A stretch of 61,799 nt of DNA. Source: Candidatus Moraniibacteriota bacterium (GTDB taxonomy: Bacteria; Patescibacteriota; Minisyncoccia; Moranbacterales; UBA11712). The translations under genes and the position numbers were made by a program. Each line of letters starts with the position of its first letter. Positions within the stretch are counted from its first letter, which is position 1. Shown here piece after piece: positions 1,885 to 55,253 of this stretch. The notes under the pieces are model-generated. The model made no database searches. It was not told the DNA's origin and worked only from the letters and a program-made list of their open reading frames with translations. Location of the stretch: the NCBI GenBank assembly GCA_028716005.1, contig JAQUQQ010000001.1:1-61799 (forward strand), read 5' to 3'.

Positions 1885-1935
1885 TTGGTAATTTCGCTCG
1901 CTACGCTTGCTGTAATCTGGATAACAAAATTCGAA

Positions 1936-3588
1936 TTACGAATTACTGATTGCGAATTGCATATTTTTCCAAAAGAGAAAATAAGCCATCAGCAAAACAT
2001 AGAGGAAAAGCAGTCCAAACACGAAAATATGCACCTTCCGGGCGCTTATTTTTTTGTTCTGGAGAATCCAGAACGAGACTGCGCCGAGAAGCATCGCCGG
2101 AAAAAACAAAATTTTGGCGTTGAGCCAGACGACGCTCAAAGCATAGGAGACGAATATGCCAAGACCGATGAAAAATCGCGCCCAGGTTTCGCCGAGGAGA
2201 ACGGGGATTGTCCAAACCCCGTTTTTTTTGTCGCCTTCAATGTCTTTGAGGTCCTTTATCGGAAGGGAAATCATGAAAGCGATGATGAGAAGCCAAAAAA
2301 CTTTGATCGGAAGCTGCGCAATGTTTTGCCCGTCGGCGAGAAGCATGAAACCGCTTATAAAAAGCAAATTTAGCGCAAGAGCCGAAAGAAAACCGGCCAC
2401 AATCGGAAATCTTTTGAGCCGAAACGGCCAGCCGGAATACACCCAGCCGATGACTTGATACACAAGGACCAAAAGAAAAAATTTCACCCCGACGGTGAGC
2501 GCAAGAACAAGAGACACGAGAAAGCTGACCAAGAAATATTGCTGGTATTCTTCGGTCGAAACCTCTCCGGTGGCCGTCGGCCTTTTTTGGTTGGTGATTT
2601 TGTCGATATCAAGGTCAACAATGTCATTCAAAAACACCGAGGCGAGCCAGGCGAAAACCGCTGCCAGAATAAGATTCGCAAGAGCGAAAAAAGAGAAGAT
2701 GTCTATGGTCAGATTTTTTGGAAAGTAGAATGCTCCCAACCCCGCGCCAAAAAGAATGAGCCCCGCGTGGATGGAAATTTGGATCCAGCGGACATTTTTT
2801 GCCACCGCCCAGAATTTTTTTCTGAAGTGAAACCAAAAGAAAAATACTAAAAGAAAAGAGATTAGGAAAGCATATATCAAATTCATCTTGGCATTGAGCG
2901 CGTTCAAAATTTCAGTACCAGAGTGTGAGAAATAGTGGATCGGAGAAAGAAAAAGTCCGGCCACATCAAGTCCTTCGATTCTGGTAATATTTTTTTCAGG
3001 TGCCAAGAACAAAAAAGAAAGCCACGAAGGGAATGAACCGAGGATAAAGAGAATCGCGTAAGCAGCCAATCCTCCCAGAAATGCCTTGAGGGCATTTTTG
3101 GTTTTGAGGAATATATAGAAAATCAGAAAAAGAACCGCGAGAGCCACTTCAATCCGGACGCCGTAGGTGATTCCAACCACCGGATCGCTTCCGAAAAAAG
3201 TGAGGAATCTTTTCCCCAGCCCCGTCAGGCTGTCAAAGGCATAAAAACTCCAACACCGCTGGGCCCCGCAAAAATATTTGTCGAGAATCGGCGGTGTGAT
3301 AATCAAAAAGAATCCCCAGAGCAAAAGATTTGATATTTTTTGGAAAGATTCCCCGAGATACGCGCTCAAAAACAAAATCAGGAGGATCAACGAGAACAAA
3401 AAAAAGAGCGTGGTGGCCAGGATCGACCCGACAATGAATTCCGCCGGCCGGCTCCCAAGATTCGACAAAAGATTTTCACCCAAAATCCGAAGCGCGATGA
3501 GAGCCGAAAAGGCGAGAAGGAATTGAGGAAGGGAGAGGGGATAATTCTCGATGTGCGTGACAACTTTTCTGACGCGATACATGACCAT
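1936..3588 (-). CDS. UbiA-family prenyltransferase fused to a large N-terminal polytopic membrane domain
   Basis: 550 aa and very hydrophobic. C-terminal half carries NDIVDLDIDK (NDxxDxxxD) and a second Asp-rich motif, KDLKDIEGDKKNG. Confidence 0.6.
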   Translation of the reverse strand: MVMYRVRKVVTHIENYPLSLPQFLLAFSALIALRILGENLLSNLGSRPAEFIVGSILATTLFFLFSLILLILFLSAYLGESFQKISNLLLWGFFLIITPPILDKYFCGAQRCWSFYAFDSLTGLGKRFLTFFGSDPVVGITYGVRIEVALAVLFLIFYIFLKTKNALKAFLGGLAAYAILFILGSFPSWLSFLFLAPEKNITRIEGLDVAGLFLSPIHYFSHSGTEILNALNAKMNLIYAFLISFLLVFFFWFHFRKKFWAVAKNVRWIQISIHAGLILFGAGLGAFYFPKNLTIDIFSFFALANLILAAVFAWLASVFLNDIVDLDIDKITNQKRPTATGEVSTEEYQQYFLVSFLVSLVLALTVGVKFFLLVLVYQVIGWVYSGWPFRLKRFPIVAGFLSALALNLLFISGFMLLADGQNIAQLPIKVFWLLIIAFMISLPIKDLKDIEGDKKNGVWTIPVLLGETWARFFIGLGIFVSYALSVVWLNAKILFFPAMLLGAVSFWILQNKKISARKVHIFVFGLLFLYVLLMAYFLFWKNMQFAISNS

Positions 3589-10178: not shown

Positions 10179-10258
10179 ACTCGCTAATCGGAGCGAATTA
10201 CAGCTAATTTGAGCGAATTCGCACTCATTCGCTTTCTATTAGCTCCACATTCGCGAGT
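10179..10258. repeat. ACTCGCGAAT-family palindromic element, compact copy A
   Basis: actcgctaat..gagcgaattcgcactc..cattcgcgagt. Arms made of CGAAT/CTAAT units about 10 nt apart. Lies between the stop at 10175 and the ATG at 10266. Confidence 0.75.
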
Positions 10259-10684: not shown

Positions 10685-10789
10685 ACTCGCGAATTAAAGA
10701 ACGAATGGAAAGCGAATGCGAACGAACTTGCTGACACGGAAAAAATCATTCGCTCTAATTCGTTTCTAATTCGCTCCTCATTCGTGAGT
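10685..10789. repeat. ACTCGCGAAT-family palindromic element, copy B (105 bp)
   Basis: actcgcgaattaaagaacgaatggaaagcgaatgcgaacgaa..loop..ttcgctctaattcgtttctaattcgctcctcattcgtgagt. Starts 2 nt after a stop and ends 7 nt before the next ATG. Confidence 0.85.
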
Positions 10790-11493: not shown

Positions 11494-11598
11494 ACTCGCG
11501 AATTAAAGAACGAATGGAAAGCGAATGCGCACGAACTTGCTGACACGGAATAAATTGTTCGCTCTCATTTGTTTCTAATTCGCTCCTCATTCGTGAGT
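11494..11598. repeat. ACTCGCGAAT-family palindromic element, copy C (105 bp, near-identical to B)
   Basis: Differs from copy B at only a handful of positions. Starts 1 nt after the stop at 11492 and ends 4 nt before the ATG at 11603. Confidence 0.85.
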
Positions 11599-25931: not shown

Positions 25932-26093
25932 AAAAATTTCTAATACCTAATGTCTAATTTCCAATAAAGCCAAAATGTCTAATACAAAAGTTTCGAAATT
26001 AGACATTCAATCATCCTAAATTTTTTTGGGTATCAGAAATTGGATATTGGATATTTGTGAAATATGCTGAATTTTCATACTGCCTGCCGACGT

Positions 26094-38778: not shown

Positions 38779-39428
38779 CTTGGTTTTATAATTTGGCGAA
38801 ATCTGAAATATTCAGAAAGGCGAAGTCCAGTCCATTTTCCCAAAAAGATATTTATCGGAATCGTGAGAAGGCTAATCCACGGATAGTTCAAAATCATCTT
38901 GATAAGCAGCGGCCAGCTGGCGATATAATATCCGATGATGGAAATGAAGAGGGTTTCCAGCGAAAGAATAACAGCGGCGCGGTTTCCCTTTTCAATTTGG
39001 ACGGCTATGAATTTTTCGACCAAAGTTATCATAATGAGAATCGGAAAAATGGAAACGCCCGCGAGGCCGGTCCGGTTCCAGGTTCCCCCGACAAAAAGGA
39101 GAAGCAGGATTGAAAATCCAACGACGGTGATCATTATGGCTACGCGGGGAAGATAAAGAAGCCTTGCTTTTTTGAGAAGATAGCGGGTGATTGTTCCCAC
39201 GACTATGACGGTCACAAAAATCGTGATGCCGTATTTGAGTTGGCTGGTGGCGAGCAGAGCGAAGGTGATGATGGCTGGCGTATAGATGCCAAAAGCTTTG
39301 ATCCCGATGACTTGACGAAAAAAAGCGATCATGGTCACGATAATCGGGAGGATCAAAACCAAGACCAGGGTGTCGAGCGGCACCCCGTTGGCAGCCGCAA
39401 GGGTGATGAACGGGTTTACGTTATCCAT
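38775..39428 (-). CDS. 7-TM membrane protein of the type associated with inactive-transglutaminase/ATP-grasp systems
   Basis: 217 aa, about 6-7 TM segments. ..FRQVIGIKAFGIYTPAIITFALL... Overlaps the downstream ATP-grasp gene by 4 nt. Confidence 0.45.
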   Translation of the reverse strand: MDNVNPFITLAAANGVPLDTLVLVLILPIIVTMIAFFRQVIGIKAFGIYTPAIITFALLATSQLKYGITIFVTVIVVGTITRYLLKKARLLYLPRVAIMITVVGFSILLLLFVGGTWNRTGLAGVSIFPILIMITLVEKFIAVQIEKGNRAAVILSLETLFISIIGYYIASWPLLIKMILNYPWISLLTIPINIFLGKWTGLRLSEYFRFRQIIKPR

Positions 39429-39466
39429 AGGGTTTTTCGCTTAAATTTAGGCAAAACGCTGATTAA

Positions 39467-39495
39467 AAAATACCGCTTTTTGGCGGTGTTGTCAA
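39467..39495 (-). promoter_or_regulatory. candidate sigma70 promoter for the 7TM/ATP-grasp operon
   Basis: The minus strand reads TTGACA (39495-39490), a 17-nt spacer, then TATTTT (39472-39467), about 40 nt upstream of the ATG at 39428. The spacer contains a small accgc/gcggt hairpin. Confidence 0.4.
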
Positions 39496-39501
39496 TAAAA
39501 A

Positions 39502-39606
39502 ACTCGCGAATTTGAGCAAATGCGAAGCGAATACGAGCGAATAATATTGTGTCTTGTTATTGAGTCCGCTCTGATTCGCGATTAATTCGCTCTCTCATTC
39601 GCGAGT
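39502..39606. repeat. ACTCGCGAAT-family palindromic element, copy D (105 bp)
   Basis: actcgcgaatttgagcaaatgcgaagcgaatacgagcgaat..loop..ctgattcgcgattaattcgctctctcattcgcgagt. The right arm overlaps the last ~16 codons of ruvC. Confidence 0.85.
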
Positions 39607-40069
39607 TGAGGTGGCATATCGCAATTGCTACCGCGTCTGCCGCGTCATCCGGTTTCGGAACGCATCGAAGCTTCAAAATATTTTTCACCATTTCCTGGAT
39701 CTGTTTTTTTTCGGCGCGGCCGTATCCGGTGAGGGCTTGTTTTACTTGAAGCGGGGTGTAGTTTTGAATTGGAATTTTATTTTTTTTTATTTCATACAAA
39801 ATTACTCCGCGGGCCTGGGCGACGGTGATAGCGGTTTTGAGATTCTTGAAAAAGAAAAGATCTTCGATAGCCGCCTCTTCGGGTTTGTATTTTTTGATGA
39901 GCGAGGAAATGTCTTTTCCAATCTCAACCAGTCGTTCCGCGTCGGAATTCAATTTGCTTGTGTTGACGCACCCGCAAGCAATGAGCCGCGGATTTTTGTT
40001 TATTTCCTCAACGACGGCCCAGCCAGTCGTCGCCGTGCCGGGGTCAATACCTAAAACTCGCGAATGCAT
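39557..40069 (-). CDS. ruvC: crossover junction endodeoxyribonuclease RuvC
   Basis: 170 aa. MHSRVLGIDPGTATTGWAVVE.. and ..ADAVAIAICHL... The first 4-5 codons and the last ~16 codons lie inside repeat copies E and D. Confidence 0.9.
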   Translation of the reverse strand: MHSRVLGIDPGTATTGWAVVEEINKNPRLIACGCVNTSKLNSDAERLVEIGKDISSLIKKYKPEEAAIEDLFFFKNLKTAITVAQARGVILYEIKKNKIPIQNYTPLQVKQALTGYGRAEKKQIQEMVKNILKLRCVPKPDDAADAVAIAICHLNSRMRERINRESERTQ

Positions 40070-40161
40070 GAGCTAATTAATCGCGAATCAGAGCGAACTT
40101 GCTAAGATGCGAATTGTATATTCGCTCTAATTAGCTTTAGGTTTGCTCTCTATTCGCGAGT
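40056..40161. repeat. ACTCGCGAAT-family palindromic element, copy E (106 bp)
   Basis: actcgcgaatgcatgagctaattaatcgcgaatcagagcgaac..loop..attcgctctaattagctttaggtttgctctctattcgcgagt. Fills the yebC-ruvC junction. Confidence 0.85.
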
Positions 40162-40163
40162 TG

Positions 40164-40880
40164 TTACAAGTTATCGTAAATTTCTTGAACGTCATCCAAT
40201 TCATCCAGTTTTTCCAGAAGTTTTTCATAATCGATTTTTGTTTCCGGGTCGATTTGAATCGGGGAGAGGGGCATGAACATAAGCCCGGCGTTGTCAATTT
40301 GGATGCCTTTTTTCTCAAGATTTTCCTTGATCTCTTTCAGATCACGCGGGTCGGTGAAAATTTGCAAGACCTCGCCTTGGAAAACGGTGTCCGCCGCTCC
40401 GGCGTCTATCGCCTGGAGTTCGATATCGTTGGCGTTTTCCTTGTTGGTTGTCGTGTATATCACGCCTATATTTTTGAATAGATATTGCAAGCTTCCGGCC
40501 GACGCCATTTTTCCGCCGGATTTTTCAATTATATTCCGAACTTCGCCGAGAGTCCGATTTTTGTTGTCGGTCGCGGTTTTCACGAGCATCGCGATGTTTC
40601 CCGGCGCCATAGCTTCGTAGACGACTTCCTCGATCGCGGCCGCGTCTTTCAGCTCGCCGGTTCCGCGCTTCACTGCCCGGTCGATATTTTCTTTTGGCAT
40701 GTTCACCGCGCGCGCCTGGTCAATGGCGAGACGCAAGCGAAAATTCATATCAGGGTTTCCTCCGCCCTCTTTCGCCGCGAGCGTCACCAGCCGCGCGACT
40801 TTGGTAAAAACGCCGGCGCGTTTGGCGTCTTGAGCCGCTTTTTTGTGTTTTATCCCCGCGAAATGTGAGTGTCCGGACAT
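40164..40880 (-). CDS. yebC: YebC/PmpR-family DNA-binding regulator
   Basis: 238 aa. MSGHSHFAGIKHKKAAQDAKRAGVFTK.. is the canonical YebC N-terminus. Confidence 0.9.
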   Translation of the reverse strand: MSGHSHFAGIKHKKAAQDAKRAGVFTKVARLVTLAAKEGGGNPDMNFRLRLAIDQARAVNMPKENIDRAVKRGTGELKDAAAIEEVVYEAMAPGNIAMLVKTATDNKNRTLGEVRNIIEKSGGKMASAGSLQYLFKNIGVIYTTTNKENANDIELQAIDAGAADTVFQGEVLQIFTDPRDLKEIKENLEKKGIQIDNAGLMFMPLSPIQIDPETKIDYEKLLEKLDELDDVQEIYDNL

Positions 40881-40947
40881 AATTGCATTTATTACCTTGA
40901 TTAGCGTAATATAATACTAGCCTCTTAAGACACATATTTCAAGGAAA

Positions 40948-41739
40948 ATGGGAGCTATTATTTCCGGAAAAGTTATTAAAGGCAAAGGAAAGGGGAAAAT
41001 ATTGGGTTTTCCGACGGTTAATATTGTGTTAAAGAAAAAAATTGAAAGCGGAGTTTATAAGGGAAAAGTTAAAATAACAACTCGCGAATGCGGAGCGAAT
41101 GGAAAGCGAATCGGAGCGAATGAGTGGTTGGCGGGGATTTTTATTAGTCCGGATGGGAAATCGCTTGAAGCGCATGTGGTTGGGTTTTCGGGAAATTTAT
41201 ACGGGGAAGAGATAGAGATAGAGATTGGAGAAAAAATTAGGGAAGCCATGAAGTTCGAAGATGATGAGGAATTAATAGAACAGATAAAAAAAGATATTAA
41301 AAGAATAACTCGCGAATATGGAGCTAATGAAAAGCGGATTGGAGCGAACAAAGGTTTGGTTTATCCGGAGTTAAGTTATAAGTTAGTCGGTTTGGCTATG
41401 GAAGTGCACAATGAACTTGGAAATATTTATCAGGAAAAGCATTATCAGAAATTGTTTGAGGAAAGACTAAAAAAGATCAAAATGCCTTATGAGAAAGAAA
41501 GACAAATGGTGATAAAAACCAAAGATAATTCTGAAATAGGAGAATTTTTTGCAGATTTTGTTATAGATAATAAAATTTTGCTGGAGTTCAAACGGGTGAA
41601 TTTTGTACATTACAATGATGTTAAACAAGTGCTAAGATATCTAGACGCGACAGGTTTAAAGCTCGGCATAATAATAAATTTCAAGTTGAATAAACTGCAG
41701 TATAAACGAATCGTGAATCCAAGAGTTCGCTCATATTAG
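40948..41739 (+). CDS. riboflavin kinase domain fused in frame to a GxxExxY-type (PD-(D/E)XK-like) protein
   Basis: aa 1-~125: GKVIKGKGKGKILGFPTVNI..LEAHVVGFSGNLYGEEIEIEIGEKIREAMKF (riboflavin kinase). aa ~137-263: ..ELSYKLVGLAMEVHNELGNIYQEKHYQ..GEFFADFVIDNKILLEFKRV..VLRYLDATGLKLGIIINF (GxxExxY family). Two repeat arms are translated (TTRECGANGKRIGANEW, ITREYGANEKRIGANKG). An in-frame TTG at 41356 could be an independent start. Confidence 0.6.
   Translation: MGAIISGKVIKGKGKGKILGFPTVNIVLKKKIESGVYKGKVKITTRECGANGKRIGANEWLAGIFISPDGKSLEAHVVGFSGNLYGEEIEIEIGEKIREAMKFEDDEELIEQIKKDIKRITREYGANEKRIGANKGLVYPELSYKLVGLAMEVHNELGNIYQEKHYQKLFEERLKKIKMPYEKERQMVIKTKDNSEIGEFFADFVIDNKILLEFKRVNFVHYNDVKQVLRYLDATGLKLGIIINFKLNKLQYKRIVNPRVRSY
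41080..41121. repeat. solo left arm of the ACTCGCGAAT element (copy F), in frame inside the riboflavin kinase domain
   Basis: actcgcgaatgcggagcgaatggaaagcgaatcggagcgaat. Four CGAAT units spaced 11, 11 and 10 nt. No matching right arm nearby. Confidence 0.75.
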
Positions 41740-41764
41740 CTATAATTTGCTCAAATTCGCGAGT
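41308..41764. mobile_element. composite ACTCGCGAAT element (copy G) whose loop carries the GxxExxY coding segment
   Basis: Left arm 41308-41349 (actcgcgaatatggagctaatgaaaagcggattggagcgaac). Right arm 41725-41764 (gttcgctcatattagctataatttgctcaaattcgcgagt). The GxxExxY-like coding sequence lies between them. Mobility is inferred, not shown. Confidence 0.5.
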
Positions 41765-41769
41765 TGATT

Positions 41770-42372
41770 ATGTTCACAGGAATAATCAAAAAAGTTTCGA
41801 GAGTTGAAAACGTTTTCCAAAAAAATGGAAGTTTTTTTGTTGAGATAAAAATTCCGAAGGGATGGAAAATTAAACTCGGAGAAAGTATTTCGGTGAATGG
41901 GGTTTGCTCGACGGCTAAAAAAGTTAGTAAAAATAATTTTACGGTTGAATATATGCCCGAAACGGTCAAAAAAACGACCGTTGGAAATTTTGCGAAAGGC
42001 AGGGAAGTAAATCTCGAGCGGAGTTTGCGCCTCGGAGATCCCATTGACGGGCACATTGTGCAGGGGCACGTGGATACGACCGGAAAAATAATCGGAGTCG
42101 ATAAAGTAAAAAGTTCTAAAGTTTTGAAAGTAGAAGTTCCGAAAGAGTTTATGAAATTTCTGGCGCCGAAGGGGTCGGTTTCTATCGATGGGACAAGTCT
42201 CACCATAGTTGACGCGAAAAAAGATTGGTTTTCTGTATCGCTTGTGAGCTATACGCTCGAAAATACAAACCTTGGAAAAATAAAAGTGGGAGAAAAAGTG
42301 AACATTGAAGTTGACGCGCTGGCGAAATATATTTTTAACATATTAAAATCGAACGGTTATGTTAAACGCTAA
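41770..42372 (+). CDS. ribE: riboflavin synthase (alpha chain)
   Basis: Canonical MFTGII start (ATG 41770; the track start at 41764 is a TTG inside the repeat terminus). ..SISVNGVCSTA.., ..GHIVQGHVD.. and ..GSVSIDGTSLT... Confidence 0.9.
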   Translation: MFTGIIKKVSRVENVFQKNGSFFVEIKIPKGWKIKLGESISVNGVCSTAKKVSKNNFTVEYMPETVKKTTVGNFAKGREVNLERSLRLGDPIDGHIVQGHVDTTGKIIGVDKVKSSKVLKVEVPKEFMKFLAPKGSVSIDGTSLTIVDAKKDWFSVSLVSYTLENTNLGKIKVGEKVNIEVDALAKYIFNILKSNGYVKR

Positions 42373-42824: not shown

Positions 42825-44336
42825 ATGGCCAAATGGGAAAAAATCGCCAGTGACTATCACTGCAATTTCTGGAAAAACTATTGTTTTGTGAAAGGAGCGG
42901 CTCTTCAGCCGGAATTGATTGATATTCAGCAGGTGCATCTGGGCATTCGGGCTTGGCCCAAAACAATTGATTATTTGTATCTTCCGGAAACGTGGAAAAG
43001 GGGCCACAGAAAACTTGCCCAATTGGCTAGCCGGGATGTTTCGCTGGTTGAAAAAATCCTGAAGAAAACAAAATTAAACGGAGAGAGAATGAACGCTTTC
43101 ACGGAAAGTTTTGTTCGCGAAAATCTCACAAAATATTCCAACAAAAAAATCGTCGAGTCTCTCAAAAAACATGCCAATTTCAATTCGTTGGAATACGCCT
43201 GGGGAATTTTGATTCCCATTCTGGATTTTCAGGACGTTCACTATATTGAAGACAATCTCAAAGCGATTCTTGGGAGAAAATTGAGCAAGGCCCAGGCCGA
43301 GCGCGCGTTTTTCATCTTTACTCAGCCGCTTCATGACTCATTTGCTCTTGAGCAGGAAAAGTCAATTTTGAAAATATTTCAAAAAATACCGAAAAAACTT
43401 TTGGAAAAAGACGCAAAAGATATCTTGGAGAAACTCGAGGCAAGATACCCGGCCATATCGCGAGAATTAAGGAATCATGTGAAAAAGTATGCCTGGGTTT
43501 TTTATGTTTACTCCGGACCGGCGGCGACGGAAAAAGATTTTGTCGAAACGCTGAAATTTTACGCCAAAAAGAAAACCAATGCCGTAAAAAAATTGAGAAA
43601 AATGGAAAATGGCAGGAACAAACTGCTGGAGGAGCGCGAATATTTTTTTCAGAAAATGAAATTGGGAAAAAAAGAAAGAAAAACCGTGGAGCTTGCTGCC
43701 GAAGTTGTATATCTCAAGCCGCGTCGGAAAGACTATCAGACAAAATCATATTATCATCTCGAATTTTTGCAGCGGGAAATTGGAAGGAGGCTTCATTTGT
43801 CGCTCAGCCAAGTGAGAAGCTGCGCCTTCCAAGAGATAAAGTCTTCTCTTCGTGGGAGAAAAATTGACGTTCATGAGATAAACAAGAGGACGGAATATCA
43901 CATTGTTGTTCCTTCTGGGAAAGAAATCAAAATATATTCAGGGAAAAAGGCAAAAGAATTTGAGAAAAATATCAGAGAAGAGAGGGTGGAGATAGGTATA
44001 AAGAAAGAAATAGAGGGTCAGTCAGCTTTCCCCGGAACGGCGAGAGGATTGGTGAAAAGAGTGGATATACCTGGAGATATGAAAAAAATGAAAGAAGGCG
44101 ATATTCTGGTTTCCACCGCCACAACCCCGAGCATTATTCCGGCGATTAGGAAAGCAGCGGCCATTGTGACGGACGAAGGCGGGCTCACCTGCCATGCGGC
44201 GATTGTGAGCCGGGAATTTGAGATTCCGTGTGTAATCGGGACGAAATTCGCTACCAAAATCTTGAAAGACGGGGATTTAGCGGCAGTGGATGCTACCACT
44301 GGAAAAGTCAAAATTATAAAAAAAGCTAAAAAATAA
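42825..44336 (+). CDS. PEP-utilizer swivel (phosphohistidine) domain protein, paralog P1, long N-terminal domain
   Basis: 503 aa. C-terminus ..GDILVSTATTPSIIPAIRKAAAIVTDEGGLTCHAAIVSREFEIPCVIGTK... The N-terminal ~390 aa are helical and Lys-rich with KYAWVFYVYSGPA. No ATP-grasp motifs seen. Confidence 0.8.
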   Translation: MAKWEKIASDYHCNFWKNYCFVKGAALQPELIDIQQVHLGIRAWPKTIDYLYLPETWKRGHRKLAQLASRDVSLVEKILKKTKLNGERMNAFTESFVRENLTKYSNKKIVESLKKHANFNSLEYAWGILIPILDFQDVHYIEDNLKAILGRKLSKAQAERAFFIFTQPLHDSFALEQEKSILKIFQKIPKKLLEKDAKDILEKLEARYPAISRELRNHVKKYAWVFYVYSGPAATEKDFVETLKFYAKKKTNAVKKLRKMENGRNKLLEEREYFFQKMKLGKKERKTVELAAEVVYLKPRRKDYQTKSYYHLEFLQREIGRRLHLSLSQVRSCAFQEIKSSLRGRKIDVHEINKRTEYHIVVPSGKEIKIYSGKKAKEFEKNIREERVEIGIKKEIEGQSAFPGTARGLVKRVDIPGDMKKMKEGDILVSTATTPSIIPAIRKAAAIVTDEGGLTCHAAIVSREFEIPCVIGTKFATKILKDGDLAAVDATTGKVKIIKKAKK

Positions 44337-44345
44337 TTTTTCTAT

Positions 44346-45905
44346 ATGAAAACAGATTTGTGGGTCAACAATTTTTCGGTCCATCGCTCCGGTTATCACC
44401 TCGCCGCGCCGGTTCTCTATGGCATAATCAATTCCCAGAAAATATTGTTTGGGAAAAAGAAACCGCCGGTTCTTAGAAATTACTTCATGATTTTCGAGGG
44501 CCCGAATATGATTCAAGCGATTCACAAGAAAGAAGAATTACGGGAACTGATAGAAAATACAATAAAAGAAATATTCAAAAATCCAAAAAAACTCAACAAA
44601 ATTCACAAAGAAACCTACAAACTCAATGACCAATATCTTTCTTTTGCCAGGTACTGTGCCAAAATAAATTTGCGGGAATTGTCCGATGCGGAACTCGGTA
44701 AAATATATTTGAAACTGATTGATTGGCAAGAAAGAGCGCACCAGCATGCCATGGCGACGACCTGGTATCTCGATAGCGATGGCGAAGATTTTTCCAAGTT
44801 GCTTATCGAAAAAACGAAAGAGTTCTGCCACTCTTCCGGGGCGAAAATAAATTTTGCCGATGCTTTCAGTGTTTTGACGACTTCAACAAGAGATACTTTA
44901 GGGGCGAAAGAAGAGATGGAATCTCTGGAGGTGATGCGCTTAATTTTGAAAGACAAGCAAGCCAAAAAAATCTTCCAAAATTTGAGAAACTTTCAAATTG
45001 TTCCCGTCGGTCTTTCGGAAAATCTTGCCAGAGCCATTCAAAAACATTTTGAAAAATGGCGTTGGCTGGCTTTCAATTATATGGGACCGGCTTACGAGAT
45101 AGATTTCTTTCTCAAGATGTGGTCAGATTTGGTAAAACAAAAATTTGATGTCAAAAAAGAGATCCAAAAGAAAAAAAATTGGGCGGGGAAAATAATGGAT
45201 CAGAAGAAAACAATTATCCGAGAGCTGAAAATAGACAAAAAATGGCGAACCATATACAACATCGCGGCTGACGTCGTGAATCTCAAGGGATACCGCAAAG
45301 AGTGCTGCTTTCACGGATTTTTTGTCATGGATGCGATGCTACGGGAAATGGCCAAGCGGCTCAATCTGGCCCGCAGTCAAATGTATCTGCTCACTTTTCA
45401 AGAAATTGGCGACATCTTTTTGAAAGAAAAAAAAGTTGATGCCAATCAGATCAACAAAAGAAACGGTTTCACTATTCTGGATTTCAAAAAAGGAAAAATC
45501 CGCGTGTTTACGGGAAACCAAGCCAAAAAATATTTTTCGAAAATCAATCTTGAAAAAGAAATAATCGACAAGAACGTCAGTGAGCTTCAGGGAACGTGCG
45601 CCTGCAGCGGCCAAGCCAAAGGGATTGTTAAAATGATAAACTTTGTCGAAGATATGCCCAAGATGAAAAAGGGGGACGTCATGGTCGCCCACACCACGTT
45701 TCCCAATCTTGTTCCGGCCATGAAATTGGCCTCGGCCATCATCACGGAAGACGGCGGAATGACGTGCCACGCGGCGATTGTGGCGCGGGAGCTTGAAACG
45801 CCGTGCATCACCGGAATTAAAACCGCGACCAAGGTTCTGAAAGACGGTGATTTGGTCGAAATCAATGCGGATGAGGGATTGGTGAAAATAGTCAAGAGAA
45901 AATAG
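44346..45905 (+). CDS. PEP-utilizer swivel domain protein, paralog P2
   Basis: 519 aa. ..GGMTCHAAIVARELETPCITGIK... The N-terminal domain is homologous to P1 (KWRWLAFNYMGPA, ..LREMAKRLNL..). Confidence 0.8.
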   Translation: MKTDLWVNNFSVHRSGYHLAAPVLYGIINSQKILFGKKKPPVLRNYFMIFEGPNMIQAIHKKEELRELIENTIKEIFKNPKKLNKIHKETYKLNDQYLSFARYCAKINLRELSDAELGKIYLKLIDWQERAHQHAMATTWYLDSDGEDFSKLLIEKTKEFCHSSGAKINFADAFSVLTTSTRDTLGAKEEMESLEVMRLILKDKQAKKIFQNLRNFQIVPVGLSENLARAIQKHFEKWRWLAFNYMGPAYEIDFFLKMWSDLVKQKFDVKKEIQKKKNWAGKIMDQKKTIIRELKIDKKWRTIYNIAADVVNLKGYRKECCFHGFFVMDAMLREMAKRLNLARSQMYLLTFQEIGDIFLKEKKVDANQINKRNGFTILDFKKGKIRVFTGNQAKKYFSKINLEKEIIDKNVSELQGTCACSGQAKGIVKMINFVEDMPKMKKGDVMVAHTTFPNLVPAMKLASAIITEDGGMTCHAAIVARELETPCITGIKTATKVLKDGDLVEINADEGLVKIVKRK

Positions 45906-45906
45906 A

Positions 45907-47400
45907 ATGAAGAAGAAAACCTGGACAAAAATGTGGTCGGACCGGCCGTATTCCTTGCATCTCATGAGCATGGTGAACGAAGCCACGATTTTTGGTTTCA
46001 AAAAAATTTTCTGGCAGAGCAAAATCACCGGGGGCTTTAACTATTGGGAGGATGGCGCAAGCAGCTATTTTTATGAAACCCACGAACTACGGGAAACAGC
46101 CCGGCTGCTCGCGGAAAAATCTTTGAAGTTTCCCAATTTCCTGCTGGATTTTTTGGAAGATGTTTATCAGAGAGCTAGGCGTCTTCGGAGGACGACGGAA
46201 AAATACAAAAAAATAAATCTGGCAACCTGCCCATCCGAAAAGCTCGTGAAGTTTATTGAGAAATATTCCCGAGAGTTTCTTGATTTTTATGCTCGCGCTA
46301 CAGTCGCCCCGATTCTTGGATATCAGGATGAAAATCCAATCTACAAAAAAATGGATGAATTGATCCGATCAAAAACAAAAGATCATCCCGAAAAATATTC
46401 AGGCTATTACACATGCCTTACAAATCCGCCGAAGAAGCTCAAAAACAATTTTATGGAAATTGAGACTTTGAAATTGGCTAAAAAGGCAAAAAAAGCGGGC
46501 GTGAGGTCGAGAAGCCAGTTGATTAAAAATTTCAAAGACGAGCTTCAAGCCATTGCGGATAAATATAAATTTATGTCTTTTGATTTTTGCGATTCGGCGT
46601 CCTGGAATCTCGAGTATTTCGCGAATTTAGCGCTGGAAAAAATGAAAGCGAATATCAATTCCGAATTGAAAAAACTGCTGAATCTTGAAAAAATATCCGC
46701 CAAAAATTTCAAAAAAGCGGCAGGGGAGCTGAAACTTTCAAAAAAAGAAAAAGACATTTGTAACCTCGTGAAATATTTGGGCTATCAAAAATGGGCGCGG
46801 GAACATGAATTTCAAGAAGCGCAATATAACCTGAAGCCCGTTCAGGACGAACTGGGGAAAAGAGCGGGACTTTCAACGCTTGAAGCAAAATATTGTTTGG
46901 CGGATGAATATGGGAAATTGCTCAAGAGTTCGGAAGGATATAAGAAATTGACTCAGGCCAGAATAAAAAAATCCCTGTGCCTTGTAAAAATTGGAAAAAA
47001 AACAAAGGTTTTTCTCGGCCAAGACGCGCGAAATATATTTTCGAGGATGAAAAAAGAAGAACCAACGAAAATTGACAAAAAATCAGAATTCAAAGGCATG
47101 CCGGCTTTTCCCGGAAAAGTTTTGGGAAAAGTGAAAATAATTATCACCGTGAAAGACGCGGGGAAAATGAAAAAAGGAAACATTCTGGTTTCTCAAGCGA
47201 CCGGTCCGGATCTTCTCCCGGCCATGAAAAAGGCCGCGGCGATTGTGACGAATGAAGGCGGCATCACGGCTCACGCCGCGATAGTCTCTCGCGAGCTCAA
47301 AATTCCTTGTGTAGTCGGCACCAAAATCGCAACGAAAGTTTTGCAGGATGGAGATCTCGTCGAAGTGGATGCGAATAAGGGAATTGTTAGAAAAATATGA
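45907..47400 (+). CDS. PEP-utilizer swivel domain protein, paralog P3
   Basis: 497 aa. ..GGITAHAAIVSRELKIPCVVGTK... The ATG is 1 nt after the P2 stop. Confidence 0.8.
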   Translation: MKKKTWTKMWSDRPYSLHLMSMVNEATIFGFKKIFWQSKITGGFNYWEDGASSYFYETHELRETARLLAEKSLKFPNFLLDFLEDVYQRARRLRRTTEKYKKINLATCPSEKLVKFIEKYSREFLDFYARATVAPILGYQDENPIYKKMDELIRSKTKDHPEKYSGYYTCLTNPPKKLKNNFMEIETLKLAKKAKKAGVRSRSQLIKNFKDELQAIADKYKFMSFDFCDSASWNLEYFANLALEKMKANINSELKKLLNLEKISAKNFKKAAGELKLSKKEKDICNLVKYLGYQKWAREHEFQEAQYNLKPVQDELGKRAGLSTLEAKYCLADEYGKLLKSSEGYKKLTQARIKKSLCLVKIGKKTKVFLGQDARNIFSRMKKEEPTKIDKKSEFKGMPAFPGKVLGKVKIIITVKDAGKMKKGNILVSQATGPDLLPAMKKAAAIVTNEGGITAHAAIVSRELKIPCVVGTKIATKVLQDGDLVEVDANKGIVRKI

Positions 47401-48869
47401 AGAAAAAATTGTATAAAATCCTGGTCAAAGAATCAAATATCAATTTTCACAATTGGTATTCAACAGCCGAAGGATTTCATCATCCCGTATTCAAAAAATT
47501 TGTCGGTGCAGTCATTTCAAATTGGCTCATCAAAATAGAAAAAGATCGAGGAGAATGGGGCATAGTAGAAAAGGAGTGGGAGAATGTCGGCGCAATTTTC
47601 GCAAAAAGATTGGCAGCGGGGAAAATTGATATTTTTGACATCGAACAAAAACACTATCAAATAGGGGAGAAAATCTGGAGGCTAACTGATTTTGTTTATC
47701 AAAACAAGCTTGAGAGCGTACCCCTATCTCGTTTGCTGACGACTCTCAGACAAATGTGGAAATATTATTGGTATTTAAATGGTATTGGTTATATTGCAGT
47801 AATCAGCGATTTGGGCCACGGCTATCTGATGGGCCAACTGTCCAAAATTCTTTTGCAAAAAAAAGTTTCTTCTAATAAAATCCAAGCTTATCAAAGCCTG
47901 TTGTCCAGCCCCAATAAAAGAACTTTGTTTTGGCAAGAAAACCTGGAACTTCTGCAATTGTGCGATAAACACAAATTAGCGACAAAACTATCAGGCAGCC
48001 AAGATTTTGATAAGCATGTAGAGAAATGGTTTTGGCTCAATTATGGCTATCAGGGACCGGCTTGGAACGGGGATGATTTTTTGATGAGAGTAAAGGAGAT
48101 TTTCAGAAACAAAAACATTAAAAAGGCATTGGCCGAACATCAAAAAAATTTCCAAACACTAGTTTTGAAACAAAGGGCGCTAAGCAAAAAGCTCAAGATC
48201 ACACGAAAGGAGAATTACTATTTTGAAACAGCCAGGCTATTCACACATTTGAAAGGATACCGGATAGAAGTCAGGCACCGCTACAGCTGGGCTTTGGATC
48301 AAATATTTTCAGAACTTGGCAGACGTCTCAATTTGCCGCTAACCTTTTTCAGATATGCCACGAGGGAAGAGATTATCAGTGCTGCAACAAAAAAAAGTTT
48401 TCCAAGCGAGACGGTTTCAAAACGCAAACAAAAAATGCTTTATGTTTTTAAAAACTTAAAAGGCTCATTTATAAAAATCGACTCGGTGGATAAAAATTTT
48501 CAATCTTTACTGGAAGATGAAAAAATTGAAGCTTCCGAAGCTATTTCGGGGCAAACAGCGTATTCTGGCAGAGCGATAGGCAAGGTTAAAATTTTAGAAC
48601 ACGAAAAAGATGTGGCCAAGATTCGAAAGGGCGACATTTTGGTTACTTTTGCAACTACTCCGGATTTTTTGCCAGCAATGATAAAAGCATCCGGCTTCGT
48701 CACCGATCAGGGTGGAATAACATCGCATGCAGCAATCACTGCCCGTGAGCTCAAAAAACCCTGCATCATCGGCACCAAAATCGCAACGAAGGTTTTGAAA
48801 GACGGAGATCTCGTGGAAGTGGACGCGGACAAGGGGGTTGTGAAAATAATCAAGAAAAGAAGAAAATGA
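47397..48869 (+). CDS. PEP-utilizer swivel domain protein, paralog P4
   Basis: 490 aa. ..GGITSHAAITARELKKPCIIGTK... ATGA overlap with P3. Confidence 0.8.
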   Translation: MKKKLYKILVKESNINFHNWYSTAEGFHHPVFKKFVGAVISNWLIKIEKDRGEWGIVEKEWENVGAIFAKRLAAGKIDIFDIEQKHYQIGEKIWRLTDFVYQNKLESVPLSRLLTTLRQMWKYYWYLNGIGYIAVISDLGHGYLMGQLSKILLQKKVSSNKIQAYQSLLSSPNKRTLFWQENLELLQLCDKHKLATKLSGSQDFDKHVEKWFWLNYGYQGPAWNGDDFLMRVKEIFRNKNIKKALAEHQKNFQTLVLKQRALSKKLKITRKENYYFETARLFTHLKGYRIEVRHRYSWALDQIFSELGRRLNLPLTFFRYATREEIISAATKKSFPSETVSKRKQKMLYVFKNLKGSFIKIDSVDKNFQSLLEDEKIEASEAISGQTAYSGRAIGKVKILEHEKDVAKIRKGDILVTFATTPDFLPAMIKASGFVTDQGGITSHAAITARELKKPCIIGTKIATKVLKDGDLVEVDADKGVVKIIKKRRK

Positions 48870-49912
48870 ATAAATGGATAAAAACTTGGGATGGAAAATG
48901 GGGGGTGCTATCATCCTCATACCCTGGATATCTTTATACAAAAGGGATAAGAAAATACCTGGGCGCCTCTTTTGACAATTATCTTGTGATAGGCGCTAAA
49001 GGCTTAGGCGCCGGCTTCGTGCCACAAAAGGAAATAATCAGTTTTGGAAATAAGCTAGCGGGTAAAATAAAAACAAAAAGAAAAATAGCTTTGCTTTGGA
49101 TAAAAAATCTCAGAAAACAAACCGATTATATAAATAAACTTCTAAAGAAAATATATAAAGAAGAAAAACTAACAGAGAAGCACTACTATACAGTGCTGGA
49201 AGCAATGAAAAAATATGTTGCTTGGCACGCGGCGATAAAGTTTTCCGGTGATCATTTGTTGGGAGATGAACACAAAAAAATTCTTTCCGAATTTAGCAGA
49301 GCCAGGGTTTATTCAGAAAATATTTATGTTGAAGTCGAGAATTTTTTTCAGAAGCATTTATTTGTGATTTCCCGAAAGATCTCCTGTCCAATTTTTCTAA
49401 TAAACCAATTGACTGAAGTTGAAATAGATCGTTATCACAAGAAAAATATAATTCCCGAGAGAAAAGTACTCAAAGAAAGATTCAGAAAAATAGCAATAAT
49501 ATTTAAACGAGGAAAATATAAGATACTGTCAGGTAGGAAAGCCGGACTTTACGAAAAGAGAATTATCGGAAATAATATTACGAAAATTCTGAAAGGGCAA
49601 CCAGCCTTTCGCGGAACAGTTAGGGGCCGAATTAGAATTGTTTTGGATCCCGCGCTTCAGGCGATCAAAAAAGGTGAAATACTGGTTGCCGGAATGACAA
49701 GGCCGGCCTTCTTGCCTCTCATAAGAAATTCGTCGGCATTTGTCACGGATGCTGGCGGGACGCTCTCTCATGCAGCTATAACAGCAAGAGAATTGAAAAA
49801 GCCTTGCATAGTCGGAACCAAAATCGCGACCAAAGTTTTGAAAGACGGCGATCTCGTGGAAGTGGACGCGGATAAGGGGGTTGTGAGGATAATACAGAAA
49901 ACAATACTATGA
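48866..49912 (+). CDS. PEP-utilizer swivel domain protein, paralog P5, short N-terminal domain
   Basis: 348 aa. ..GGTLSHAAITARELKKPCIVGTK... ATGA overlap with P4. Confidence 0.8.
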   Translation: MNKWIKTWDGKWGVLSSSYPGYLYTKGIRKYLGASFDNYLVIGAKGLGAGFVPQKEIISFGNKLAGKIKTKRKIALLWIKNLRKQTDYINKLLKKIYKEEKLTEKHYYTVLEAMKKYVAWHAAIKFSGDHLLGDEHKKILSEFSRARVYSENIYVEVENFFQKHLFVISRKISCPIFLINQLTEVEIDRYHKKNIIPERKVLKERFRKIAIIFKRGKYKILSGRKAGLYEKRIIGNNITKILKGQPAFRGTVRGRIRIVLDPALQAIKKGEILVAGMTRPAFLPLIRNSSAFVTDAGGTLSHAAITARELKKPCIVGTKIATKVLKDGDLVEVDADKGVVRIIQKTIL

Positions 49913-53789: not shown

Positions 53790-53790
53790 T

Positions 53791-54729: not shown

Positions 54730-54749
54730 TGCTTAAATGGGAAAATTAA

Positions 54750-54845
54750 AGTGTCGTTGGCACCAAAACCGCAACTAGAATAATCAGGAATGGCGATCTC
54801 GTGGAAGTAGACGCGGATAAGGGGGTAGTGAAAATAATTAAGAAA
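54750..54845 (+). pseudogene. 3' remnant of a ninth PEP-utilizer swivel paralog
   Basis: Reads SVVGTKTATRIIRNGDLVEVDADKGVVKIIKKEK directly after a TAA at 54747-54749. It corresponds to only the last ~30 codons of P3-P8 and runs on in frame into the ORF ending at 55253. Confidence 0.7.
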
Positions 54846-54917
54846 GAAAAAAATAAAGTAGAAAAAGTTCTGGCATATTGTATAAATAATAAGCATTTAC
54901 AATTAATTTTAATTAAT

Positions 54918-55253
54918 ATGAATAAAAGAGAAATGCCTTCTTCCCGAGAGAGAGAGGACCTGACAAAAGAGTTGCTTGACAAAGAGCTAGATGGGTTTGG
55001 AAAAGTCGTTCGCATTTACAGTGAAAAAACCGGTCAAAATATGCCCCCTGCGACTCAAAAATATCTCGAAGACATGCAGCACTCGTTAGATAATACGCAA
55101 GAAAATGATGTTGATAAATTGAGTGAAATTAAAGATGCAATTTTACGCGAGGCGGAATTTCATAGCAGAATAGCCGGTTTCGATTTGTGGGATGAAACTC
55201 GCGAAATTAATAACATAATCTCCAGATTGAAATCAGTAAAAGAATCAAAGTAG
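54918..55253 (+). CDS. hypothetical acidic protein (start uncertain; the ORF is continuous with the remnant upstream)
   Basis: MNKREMPSSREREDLTKELLDKELDGFG... No recognised motif. The track ORF 54801..55253 starts with a GTG inside the remnant. Confidence 0.3.
   Translation: MNKREMPSSREREDLTKELLDKELDGFGKVVRIYSEKTGQNMPPATQKYLEDMQHSLDNTQENDVDKLSEIKDAILREAEFHSRIAGFDLWDETREINNIISRLKSVKESK

Follow-up and report, generated by a model that had tools for sequence, protein, structure and literature searches.

The segment at 41308-41764 of the window, by which we mean the whole 61,799-nt stretch of DNA analysed, belongs, as a full-length copy, to a family of small DNA elements with palindromic ends, and the 80-106-bp palindromes and solo arms elsewhere in the window are gene-less members of that family. 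The arm-gene-arm architecture recurs in other genomes, is present or absent at one gene junction, and is exchanged laterally in a tract limited to the cassette. A modestly probable explanation is a partnership like that of REPINs and RAYTs: a PD-(D/E)XK nuclease of the GxxExxY family would be cognate to the multi-repeat palindromic elements and would bind and cleave them.

Results

A GxxExxY gene between inverted multi-repeat arms

The 457-bp unit (element E7) consists of a left arm, 375 nt and an inverted right arm. Its parts, with the open reading frame into which it is built, are as follows.

41308..41349, + strand: left arm of E7, sequence ACTCGCGAATATGGAGCTAATGAAAAGCGGATTGGAGCGAAC; 45.7 bits, E 4.5e-12 with the arm profile
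41725..41764, + strand: right arm of E7, sequence GTTCGCTCATATTAGCTATAATTTGCTCAAATTCGCGAGT; 40.6 bits, E 1.8e-10 with the arm profile
41353..41739, + strand: GxxExxY / PD-(D/E)XK coding segment, based on profile matches, a structure model and invariant residues
40948..41739, + strand: 263-aa fusion ORF, with riboflavin kinase residues 5-121, an arm-encoded linker and GxxExxY residues 141-256

The arm profile was built from 14 arms of the window, both E7 arms included, and the two E7 scores lie within the range of the other window copies, in agreement with the typical left and right arms that the first-pass annotation had placed at 41308-41349 and 41725-41764. The left arm comprises four units of ~11 nt (ACTCGCGAAT / GGAGCTAAT / AAGCGGAT / GGAGCGAAC), and the right arm, its inverted counterpart, terminates in ATTCGCGAGT. 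The ends of these elements are mutually inverted arrays of 3-5 short units at roughly helical-turn spacing; the unit in the window is GAGCGAAT, and the family-wide core is C(G/T)AAT. With one mismatch allowed, the terminal decamer ACTCGCGAAT is found 21 times in the window versus 5.3 expected, and 0 of 100 shuffles reach 21.

The sole cargo of the element is a GxxExxY protein of ~125 aa with a PD-(D/E)XK domain. The start and stop codons of its gene are carried by the arms, and part of the arm conservation could therefore reflect expression. Within one element the left arm and the reverse-complemented right arm are 0.70-0.78 identical, and arms of different elements have a mean identity of 0.77. 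As identity is no higher within than between elements, conservation lies in the motif, not in the pairing.

The GxxExxY protein and its fusion to riboflavin kinase

The window holds one GxxExxY gene, the one enclosed by the E7 arms. Its product matches TIGR04256 (GxxExxY) over positions 1-116 of 116 (92.9 bits, cut-off 35, E 1.7e-26; 41368-41715 in the DNA) and PF13366 (PDDEXK_3) over positions 2-117 of 117 (88.1 bits, cut-off 22). The claim that the ~375 nt between the arms encode a complete GxxExxY domain is upheld by this full-length TIGR04256 match, and the peptides quoted for it are present. An AlphaFold2 model (pLDDT 93.7) has the secondary structure H-H-E-E-E-H-E-E, and its best Foldseek matches are Cas4 SSO0001, lambda exonuclease and MGME1, with Hjc also found (E from 3e-4 upward); the catalytic domain of I-Bth0305I is among the weak matches. 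E28, D68, E78 and K80 are invariant in 48 GxxExxY sequences. According to the model, these matches and these residues, the protein has the PD-(D/E)XK nuclease fold that had been proposed for it, with an intact catalytic constellation, and is predicted to be catalytic. A sequence search of the PDB gave no match. The dN/dS of GxxExxY is about 0.03-0.05, indicating strong purifying selection; rows of the dN/dS table for locus L129, which were offset by one codon, were left out.

In the window the GxxExxY domain is not a separate ORF but the C-terminal half of one that starts as riboflavin kinase, with Flavokinase and PDDEXK_3 as its only Pfam matches. The left arm is translated in frame as the linker peptide TREYGANEKRIGAN. 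A candidate start of the domain's own is the TTG at 41353; the stop codon TAG (41737-41739) lies inside the right arm, and the ribE ATG (41770) is 5 nt downstream of that arm. As the ribF stop codon of pristine relatives lies 16 nt inside ribE, insertion of the element at ribF/ribE severed ribF from its stop codon. The same 263-aa fusion protein is encoded in the independent assembly L001.

Gene-less copies in the window

Besides E7, the 61.8 kb contain five palindromes and two solo arms that belong to its arm family but lack the gene.

10179..10258, no strand: palindrome E1, 80 bp, gene-less and loopless with directly adjoining arms, placed after a stop codon and before the following ATG
10685..10789, no strand: palindrome E2, 105 bp, gene-less
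11494..11598, no strand: palindrome E3, 105 bp, gene-less, 93% identical to E2; repeat family D5
39502..39606, no strand: palindrome E4, 105 bp, gene-less, source of the ruvC stop codon and of the ~16 codons before it
40056..40161, no strand: palindrome E5, 106 bp, gene-less, providing the ruvC start (MHSRV)
41080..41124, + strand: solo left-type arm E6, in frame inside the riboflavin kinase CDS, encoding TRECGANGKRIGANE; 47.9 bits
56354..56395, + strand: solo left-type arm E8, at the 3' end of a PPDK_N gene; 46.2 bits

The short palindromes are positioned exactly between a stop codon and the following ATG, and repeats are also inserted in frame within ribF (window) and IleRS (L127). Several copies differ in occurrence between relatives. 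E5 is apparently missing, judging from gene coordinates on the P0123 contig, in a syntenic relative whose ruvC and yebC overlap. E6 is found in L116 (43/45 identical) and L002 and is absent from ribF of L216-L219. E8 lies at a synteny breakpoint relative to L002, and an ORF6N gene adjoins it. The E1 site was considered as an 'empty' homologue of the gene-bearing L129 site and rejected, the flanking genes being non-homologous.

The same layout in other genomes

In related Patescibacteria the arm family of the window surrounds close GxxExxY homologues at four unrelated gene junctions: ribF/ribE, ABC ATPase/FtsX permease, glycosyltransferase/IleRS and DUF5663/hypothetical. Every close relative examined (66-96% identity) has this arm family, and the arm profile of the window matches solely beside proteins of at least 66% identity. 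For more distant homologues, 63 loci from a metagenome scan were compared with 225 control ORFs from the same loci; inverted repeats with z>=5 flank 42 of the former versus 11 of the latter. In roughly two thirds of the 63 loci, CGAAT, CTAAT or a close variant is the 5-mer that the arms most often share. No arms are detectable at about a third of GxxExxY genes, the 37%-identical L006 paralogue and a Persicobacter copy included, and the repeats flanking a Fusobacteria copy are direct, not inverted. Of 56 outward-facing arm pairs with a spacing of 200-1200 nt, 54 enclose a GxxExxY ORF, a measure of specificity within this sample only, since the loci were sampled for GxxExxY content; pseudogenes are almost absent (54 of 56 intact).

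Similar layouts lie between housekeeping genes in Bacteroidota, namely in Bacteroides (CAGAGGAC x3, z=12) and in Bernardetia, whose arms are 28 nt long, as well as in Sphingomonas (CGCGAAG x3, z=9), and conserved-gene insertion sites in several phyla include fabD/fabG, radA/FAD protein, ribF/ribE and GT/IleRS. The adjacent paralogues of L166 differ in arm variant (GCGAAT versus CCCGAAT), and gene-less palindromes of matching type lie on the same contigs in L158, L146 and L194. A genome-wide DNA pattern scan, in which most matches were due to chance, as 17 specified bases in 596 Gb would lead one to expect, gave ~20 real matches, all in Patescibacteria (Moranbacteria, JAZDKA01 and others); repeated matches in Microcoleus, which come without a GxxExxY gene, were set aside. 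A tblastn search of a phage collection and a scan of IMG/VR detected no relatives, and thus gave no evidence for a viral vehicle.

Presence, absence and exchange at ribF/ribE

The ribF/ribE junction is filled in the window, L116, L002 and L134. It is empty in L218 and L219, where ribF and ribE overlap by 16 nt, and in L216 and L217 it is occupied by solo arms of two other families. The housekeeping proteins of carriers and non-carriers are about equally distant. Between the window and L116, which is another species, the cassette is 97.6% identical at the nucleotide level (left arm 39/42, gene 366/375, right arm 39/40) versus 72-78% for ribF, ribE and ribH, showing that the cassette has moved, or been exchanged, in one piece. 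The high-identity tract spans ~41282-41795 (94-100%, versus 70-76% outside) and thus ends about 25-30 nt beyond the arms. The proportion of synonymous differences (pS) is 0.07 to L116 versus 0.72 to L002. There are few gene-bearing copies per contig and they cluster by insertion site, which indicates that inheritance is mostly vertical.

Occupied and empty alleles, and a conversion tract confined to the gene and the bases next to it, are what a free-standing homing gene would produce. Under such a scenario, which we consider unlikely, GxxExxY would cut unoccupied junctions in genomes that do not have it, and repair would copy the gene in. The arms would then be not the substrate but an expression or insulation module, a hairpin with start and stop codons that limits polarity, and the short palindromes would be remains of sites that lost the gene, or a repeat with no connection to it. 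The sharp presence/absence at a conserved junction, the confinement of the 97.6% identity to the cassette with about 25 nt of possibly co-converted flank, and the wedging of GxxExxY between conserved housekeeping genes in several phyla would all agree with homing, and PD-(D/E)XK homing enzymes exist, with the I-Bth0305I catalytic domain among the weak Foldseek matches. However, family members without the gene, both palindromes and solo arms, occupy many unrelated junctions and even the inside of genes, arm variants track protein paralogues, and solo arms of two other families lie at ribF/ribE in L216 and L217. The long vertical persistence at a dN/dS of 0.03-0.05 with almost no pseudogenes is likewise unlike the usual cycle of gain and decay.

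That same persistence, with position kept over deep divergence, could point to a function for the host, though this seems more doubtful still. The palindromes would then have a structural or regulatory part in operons, for instance as mRNA hairpins, as RNase III sites or as arrays bound by a nucleoid protein, and GxxExxY would be maintained by the host to process or tolerate them, by cutting cruciforms or hairpins, or would be regulated by them, with no role in mobility. Consistent with this, the palindromes lie exactly between stop codon and next ATG and are stable as folded RNA (z -3.4 to -4.3), and in the minimum-free-energy fold the arms pair with the gene between them. Against it, conservation does not favour pairing between the two arms of an element, and an Rfam scan of 39300-42000 gave no match at E<=1. 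Cassette and palindromes are present or absent among equally related species, lateral exchange is limited to the cassette, several arm families coexist within one genome, and ribF and IleRS carry in-frame insertions, all of which speak against a host role.

A classical autonomous transposon with MITEs is improbable. In such a case the 457-bp element would be the parent, the 80-106-bp copies would derive from it by internal deletion, and movement would be by cut-and-paste. Long and short copies do share terminal inverted repeats, and the multi-site ends resemble those of Tn7 or Mu. However, the loops of the short palindromes (0-25 nt) hold no gene remnants and have no similarity to the gene ends, element sizes are bimodal with no intermediate-sized derivatives seen, and no consistent target-site duplication was found at 14 short copies or at the filled-versus-empty ribF/ribE junction. 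An IS/MITE pair would be recognized by a transposase family, a target-site duplication and a parent-derived interior; we found no known transposase domain and neither of the other two features.

A chance flanking of an unrelated small gene by two independent solo arms, which the first-pass annotation had named as a possible objection along with GxxExxY genes that lack arms, is refuted: although solo arms do occur in the window (41080, 56354), the arrangement is repeated at four junctions and dozens of loci, with arms at all close relatives and 42 of 63 distant loci, and the block is wholly missing from the empty sites of L218 and L219 and 97.6% identical in L116. An integron cassette with attC was dismissed by inspection, as the flanked genes are core genes (ruvC, yebC, ribF) and the termini are ACTCGCGAAT; no integrase was found among the few window ORFs scanned.

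Discussion

A nuclease as possible partner of a mobile repeat

Under the REPIN/RAYT-like reading, the nuclease would recognize the units repeated in arms of its own type and would cut there or close by, or else at junctions that are unoccupied. Repair or recombination by the host would then copy or exchange the cassette, and in trans the gene-less palindromes, with stop-codon/start-codon junctions inside operons as targets. Arm binding by the protein, cleavage, and spread driven by these activities are inferred steps. We know of no PD-(D/E)XK nuclease that carries out strand transfer alone, so spread must rely on host repair, which blurs the line between this reading and homing.

The first-pass annotation had suggested that the short copies are non-autonomous derivatives of a nuclease-bearing parent. 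The kinship stands; an origin by deletion of the gene is unsupported. With no gene remnants and no intermediates, the analogy to REP/RAYT, with a trans-acting partner, is better than that to a deletion-derived MITE. The further suggestion that GxxExxY is a mobility or maintenance factor of the repeats gains support from the arm association and the cassette exchange, with a putative action of the protein on the arms. Our literature search found no published description of a GxxExxY-repeat association.

Comparison with known systems

In REPIN/RAYT systems a low-copy gene is flanked by inverted cognate repeats that are also dispersed without the gene, paralogues go with different repeat variants, and inheritance is mostly vertical under purifying selection (PMC3116915, PMC3337134, PMC5581495). 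Likewise, the GxxExxY gene is flanked by inverted cognate repeats that also occur as gene-less doublets and singlets, its paralogues have different repeats, and it is mostly vertically inherited under purifying selection. However, the protein is a ~125-aa PD-(D/E)XK nuclease, not an HUH/Y1 (IS200/IS605-like) transposase, and since Pfam gives no HUH/Y1 transposase, membership in REP/RAYT is rejected and the resemblance is functional only. Unlike a REP, which is a single hairpin, a GxxExxY arm strings together 3-5 short units in direct orientation. Other differences are the start and stop codons of the gene within the arms, the location of the elements precisely at stop/start junctions in operons or sometimes in frame inside genes, and the inclusion of Patescibacteria among the hosts.

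The free-standing homing genes of phages, such as seg and mob of T-even phages, spread by 'intronless homing' and encode mainly GIY-YIG and HNH enzymes. Like the GxxExxY elements, they are small nuclease genes between conserved genes, with presence/absence polymorphism at the same junction and a high-identity tract restricted to the gene and a few flanking bases. Unlike them, seg and mob genes have neither inverted multi-repeat arms nor dispersed gene-less copies, and they decay after fixation whereas the GxxExxY gene is intact over deep divergence. Rickettsia palindromic elements, ERIC and Correia-type repeats are intergenic palindromes, and the gene-less copies are likewise imperfect palindromes, about 80-150 bp long, that lie between genes in transcribed DNA, with some copies inserted in frame in coding sequences and translated (ribF in the window, IleRS in L127). 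To our knowledge those repeats have no assigned mobilising protein; here, by contrast, one specific gene family is nested in the repeat.

The 23S rRNA intervening sequences of the Leptospira and Coxiella type have an ORF for a four-helix-bundle protein between inverted repeats. They share with the GxxExxY element a long inverted-repeat stem around one small ORF in an essential transcription unit, but the protein family differs and the sites here are protein operons, not rRNA. Tn7/Mu-type ends consist of several repeated protein-binding sites in inverted orientation, and TnsA has a PD-(D/E)XK fold; the GxxExxY element resembles them in its multi-unit inverted ends and its PD-(D/E)XK protein, but at 457 bp with a single gene it has no DDE transposase, ATPase or target-site duplication.

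Implications for the GxxExxY family

A total of 15,381 clusters at 50% identity match the GxxExxY profile at E<=1e-3. The family (GxxExxY/PDDEXK_3) is listed as 'function unknown' in a census of PD-(D/E)XK proteins (PMC3424549), and the literature that we found mentioning it does not address its function. The arm association provides a first concrete, biochemically testable hypothesis for it, as the partner of a mobile repeat, and would widen the REPIN/RAYT concept to a second, unrelated enzyme class. Tentatively, and as a possibility rather than a probability, the whole family (TIGR04256/PF13366) might be the dedicated nuclease of a previously unrecognized class of selfish elements that colonises housekeeping stop/start junctions in at least four phyla and spreads by nuclease-triggered, repair-dependent copying. 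Such a class would comprise palindromic cassettes with multi-repeat ends and their gene-less, REPIN-like derivatives.

In Patescibacteria, such elements would account for the odd peptides at the N and C termini of GxxExxY proteins (MGTN..., ...IRSD), for fusions by read-through like that of riboflavin kinase with GxxExxY, for in-frame repeats in essential genes and for some synteny breakpoints, and could serve as a marker for lateral DNA exchange among ultra-small bacteria. Solo arrays of other arm families also occur in the window.

1932..1957, + strand: solo array of another arm family, with TTCGAAT / TACGAAT / TGCGAAT units
25940..25966, + strand: solo array of a third arm family, TCTAAT ACCTAAT GTCTAAT TTCCAAT

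The array at 25940..25966 is of the same type as the one at the ribF/ribE junction of L217.

The gene-bearing element and its gene

The palindromic repeat family of the window has eight members, which are listed here with two solo arrays of other arm families.

Palindromic elements and solo arrays in the window
1932-1957: solo array of another arm family (TACGAAT-type), at a gene end
10179-10258: E1, gene-less palindrome
10685-10789: E2, gene-less palindrome
11494-11598: E3, gene-less palindrome
25940-25966: solo array of another arm family (CCTAAT-type), at a gene end
39502-39606: E4, gene-less palindrome
40056-40161: E5, gene-less palindrome
41080-41124: E6, solo arm in frame within the riboflavin kinase gene, translated as TRECGANGKRIGANE
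41308-41349: E7, left arm (45.7 bits)
41725-41764: E7, right arm with terminus ATTCGCGAGT (40.6 bits)
56354-56395: E8, solo arm downstream of PPDK_N

The first-pass annotation described E7 (41308-41764) as typical left and right arms enclosing a complete GxxExxY domain, and both points were confirmed. Against a profile of the window's 14 arms, the two E7 arms score in line with the others; each has four units at about 11-nt spacing with the consensus (G)AGCGAAT, the outermost unit being ACTCGCGAAT. The 375 nt between them, the one GxxExxY gene in the window, match TIGR04256 over positions 1-116 of 116 (E 1.7e-26) and PF13366 over positions 2-117 of 117. Beyond that description, the left arm is translated in frame within a 263-aa ORF (40948-41739) that starts as a riboflavin kinase (Flavokinase, residues 5-121) and has the GxxExxY domain as its C-terminal half. 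An independent assembly (L001) has this same ORF.

Judged by selection, invariant residues and a structural model, the gene looks functional. The dN/dS ratio is about 0.03-0.05 between site-orthologues, with dS saturated, and 0.19, from very few changes, between the window and Moranbacteria GW2011_GWC2_40_12 (L116). Across 48 sequences, residues E28, D68, E78 and K80 never vary. AlphaFold2 models the protein with high confidence (pLDDT 93.7), and among solved structures the model lies nearest in fold to Cas4 SSO0001, lambda exonuclease and MGME1 and, more weakly, to the Hjc resolvase, all of them PD-(D/E)XK nucleases. A sequence search of solved structures with the protein gave no match.

Recurrence among close relatives

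The nearest homologues, at 66-84% identity, are unfused proteins 130-155 aa long, whose N-termini (MRANEKRIGAN, MGANIKTREYGTNEKQTIAN, MGTN...) and C-termini (...NPRISSY, ...AIRSD) resemble translated arms, as direct reading of their contigs confirmed. On these contigs the same left and right arms surround the gene at four different junctions, at all of which the gene is co-oriented with its neighbors and occupies the intergenic gap. The first-pass annotation asked whether GxxExxY genes are consistently bracketed by the same inverted arms; among the close relatives examined, they are.

Junctions occupied by the arm-gene-arm unit (slashes mark gene junctions)
ribF/ribE: window, L116, L002-5, L134
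ABC ATPase/FtsX permease: L006-8
Glycosyltransferase/IleRS: L125-128
DUF5663/hypothetical protein, adjoining a TrwB/TraG-like coupling-protein gene: L129/130

Because the unit recurs, E7 is not a pair of solo arms flanking a gene by chance; arm-gene-arm recurrence at four junctions rules this out, and the probability left to chance flanking is negligible. In L127, a solo arm of the window's family (11079-11121) lies inside a called IleRS ORF (10471-14061), where it is presumably also translated in frame.

Occupancy and exchange at the ribF/ribE junction

Comparison loci for ribF/ribE were found by looking up close RibE relatives. In L218 and L219, ribF (110-113 aa) overlaps ribE by 16 nt with no element (...GATATTAAAAATAT/ATGTTCACAGG...), and the 457-bp unit of the window sits exactly at this overlap point. 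With the unit in place, ribF no longer reaches its stop codon within ribE, which explains why it is read through into GxxExxY. In L216 and L217 the GxxExxY gene is absent and a single arm-like array of another family is found instead (2960-3000 in each), with the last few ribF codons lying within it. The array is TAATTCG TAATTTG TAATTGG CAATTAG in L216 and TCTAAT ACCTAAT TATCTAAT TCACCTAAT in L217; given these two other families, the junction has therefore been colonized repeatedly. Relatives with and without the GxxExxY gene show similar divergence from the window (RibE 74-81%, RibH 75-84% amino acid identity).

Between the window and L116, nucleotide identity is 72-78% in ribF, ribE and ribH, versus 39/42 in the left arm, 366/375 (97.6%) in the GxxExxY gene and 39/40 in the right arm, and the high-identity tract stops about 25-30 nt beyond the arms. 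At synonymous sites the gene differs from L116 by a proportion of 0.07 and from L002 by 0.72, so the 97.6% identity does not come from constraint on the sequence itself. Nor is it an assembly artefact, since both versions are present in more than one independent assembly. The simplest reading of these alignments is that the cassette alone was recently exchanged laterally or converted, which is evidence that it is, or was, mobile.

Synteny breaks between window positions 56354-56965 and L002 positions 8590-11600. The order in L002 is PPDK_N-ribF-GxxExxY-ribE-ribH. The window instead has ribF through ribH upstream of a tandem array (42825-56365) of about ten paralogues with a C-terminal PEP-utilizing mobile domain (PF00391) and then a separate PPDK_N gene, followed by the solo arm E8 (56354-56395) and an ORF6N (KilA-N-like) gene on the opposite strand. 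Arms may mark rearrangement breakpoints. L002 has three copies of the PF00391 paralogue.

Gene-less members and the nature of the arms

E6 takes the place of a short hairpin-loop segment of riboflavin kinase (DDKEYK / GDKDYK in L218 and L219); it is kept in L116 and L002 and absent from L216-L219. Orthologous arms are conserved far better than adjoining coding DNA; for example, E6 is identical to L116 at 43/45 positions within a ribF that is only 72-77% identical.

The ruvC gene (39557-40069, minus strand) is flanked on both sides by complete palindromes, E4 and E5 (39502-40161); E5 supplies its start codon and MHSRV, and E4 its last ~16 codons and stop. With 89% complementarity, the arms on the ruvC side (39563-39607 and 40055-40099) match better than any other arm pair in the window, and E5 may have arisen from E4 by inverted copying. 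In a syntenic relative (7TM-RuvC-YebC-ribF-ribE-ribH, gene coordinates only), ruvC and yebC overlap at the position of E5, from which the short palindromes appear to be polymorphic too. The two solo arrays of other families indicate that several arm families co-exist in this genome, the CCTAAT-type being found also at ribF/ribE of L217; their cognate GxxExxY genes, if any, are outside the window.

The palindromes fold well as RNA (z -3.4 to -4.3), the E7 arms pairing across the gene, and an Rfam search matched no family. The two arms within one element are 0.70-0.78 alike, while arms of different elements are on average 0.77 alike, and unit spacing is unequal between the two arms of one copy. 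It is therefore the repeated unit that is conserved, not pairing. Binding sites repeated along one face of the helix, as in Tn7 and Mu ends and in iterons, fit this pattern better than a plain hairpin does.

Generality across the GxxExxY family

A metagenome scan gave 80 loci whose GxxExxY genes share 36-96% identity with that of the window, and among these the window's arm profile matches only beside proteins of at least 66% identity. With a test independent of arm family, inverted repeats across the gene (z>=5) were found at 42/63 loci, compared with 11/225 control ORFs of the same loci. Arms of distant clades are also short-unit arrays (CTCGCTAAT, CACGAAT, TACGAAT, CCCGAAT), and in about two-thirds of the 63 loci the top inverted-repeated 5-mer on both flanks is CGAAT, CTAAT or one close to them. 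In 713 kb of Patescibacteria loci, 54 of 56 outward-facing cluster pairs (C[GTA]AAT ... ATT[CAT]G, 200-1200 nt apart) enclose an intact GxxExxY ORF, a specificity that applies within this sample, the loci having been selected for GxxExxY presence. Two adjacent paralogues in L166 each have a different arm variant, and gene-less palindromes of the matching variant share contigs with the genes (L158, L146 and L194).

GxxExxY loci outside Patescibacteria, on large plasmids and chromids
Bacteroides finegoldii (L214): radA/GxxExxY/FAD protein, arms 3 x CAGAGGAC, z=12
Bernardetia (L220): ade/GxxExxY, 28-nt arms, 86% complementary, unit CACAGAGA
Sphingomonas (L215): fabD/GxxExxY/fabG, arms 3 x CGCGAAG, z=9
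Treponema: shorter inverted repeat
Gemmatirosa: perfect CAGAGGAC-type palindrome directly downstream of the gene
Fusobacteria plasmid (L213), 1400-1960: gene between direct repeats of ~50 nt (..CAGATTTAATCCGTGTACCTAT..), not inverted arms

In the first three, the gene is wedged co-oriented among housekeeping genes and the arms consist of phylum-specific units. The arm-gene-arm architecture is thus general for the family. That other GxxExxY genes are also armed holds for the 42/63 loci and for Bacteroides, Bernardetia and Sphingomonas, but not for the Fusobacteria plasmid with its direct repeats or the Persicobacter and Prevotella loci, where no arms were detected.

The family profile matches 15,381 clusters (50% identity) at E<=1e-3 and 4,288 at E<=1e-10. 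Among the best 150 matches, many are 260-660 aa, with the domain at one end or mid-protein of a fusion, or twice in tandem; such proteins may have arisen by read-through between neighboring genes, as with ribF-GxxExxY.

Possible mechanism

Observed are the architecture with its recurrence and specificity, arm variants that differ between paralogues, occupancy polymorphism, exchange confined to the cassette, and selection acting on the gene. As somewhat more likely than not, we favor a REPIN/RAYT-like partnership between a nuclease and its cognate repeats, in which arm binding and cleavage by GxxExxY would be causally linked to spread. The nuclease would recognize units of its own arm type and cut at them, or at unoccupied junctions; host repair would then copy or exchange the cassette and, in trans, the gene-less palindromes. 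REPIN/RAYT systems are the closest analogue of GxxExxY elements: there, too, a low-copy gene lies between inverted copies of its own repeat, further copies are scattered as doublets and singlets, and descent is mostly vertical (PMC3116915, PMC3337134, PMC5581495). GxxExxY elements are not members of that group, as they lack the HUH/Y1 transposase that defines it.

With the free-standing homing genes of phages, the cassette has in common its occupancy polymorphism and short conversion tract. We consider it unlikely that GxxExxY is a free-standing homing nuclease with arms that are only an expression or insulation module. Somewhat less likely still is a host-serving nuclease accompanied by regulatory palindromes. 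A classical transposon with MITEs arisen by deletion is improbable, as the loops of the short copies are unrelated, sizes are bimodal, and neither target duplication nor a transposase domain is present. The first-pass proposal of a nuclease-bearing element behind the repeats is supported when read as a REP/RAYT-like or homing system, but not as a parent giving rise to the 105-bp palindromes by deletion.

In-frame insertion into genes, here E6 in riboflavin kinase, resembles Rickettsia palindromic elements. ORF-bearing 23S rRNA intervening sequences carry an ORF within a long stem, a layout similar to that of E7. In the literature searched, the name GxxExxY occurs in three papers, none of which deals with its function, and nothing relevant turned up on palindromic repeats in Patescibacteria. 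A PD-(D/E)XK census entered PDDEXK_3 as 'Unknown', with multiple transfers (PMC3424549). The proposed partnership would be the first concrete functional hypothesis for this large protein family of unknown function.

Other repeats in the window

Repeat families D1 (246-nt) and D2 (100-nt) mark the conserved 3' ends of the PF00391 paralogues. Near the contig start (193-310) is an AT-rich imperfect palindrome with 55-nt arms, 76% complementary, and an 8-nt loop, unrelated to the CGAAT family. A separate direct-repeat family (TCCCGCATTATCCAAAGCTCGGCTTTT... / ...GGAATTCCTCAAAGCCAAGCTTT) has two copies about 222 nt apart (9743-10037) and a third 11.7 kb off (21705-21777).
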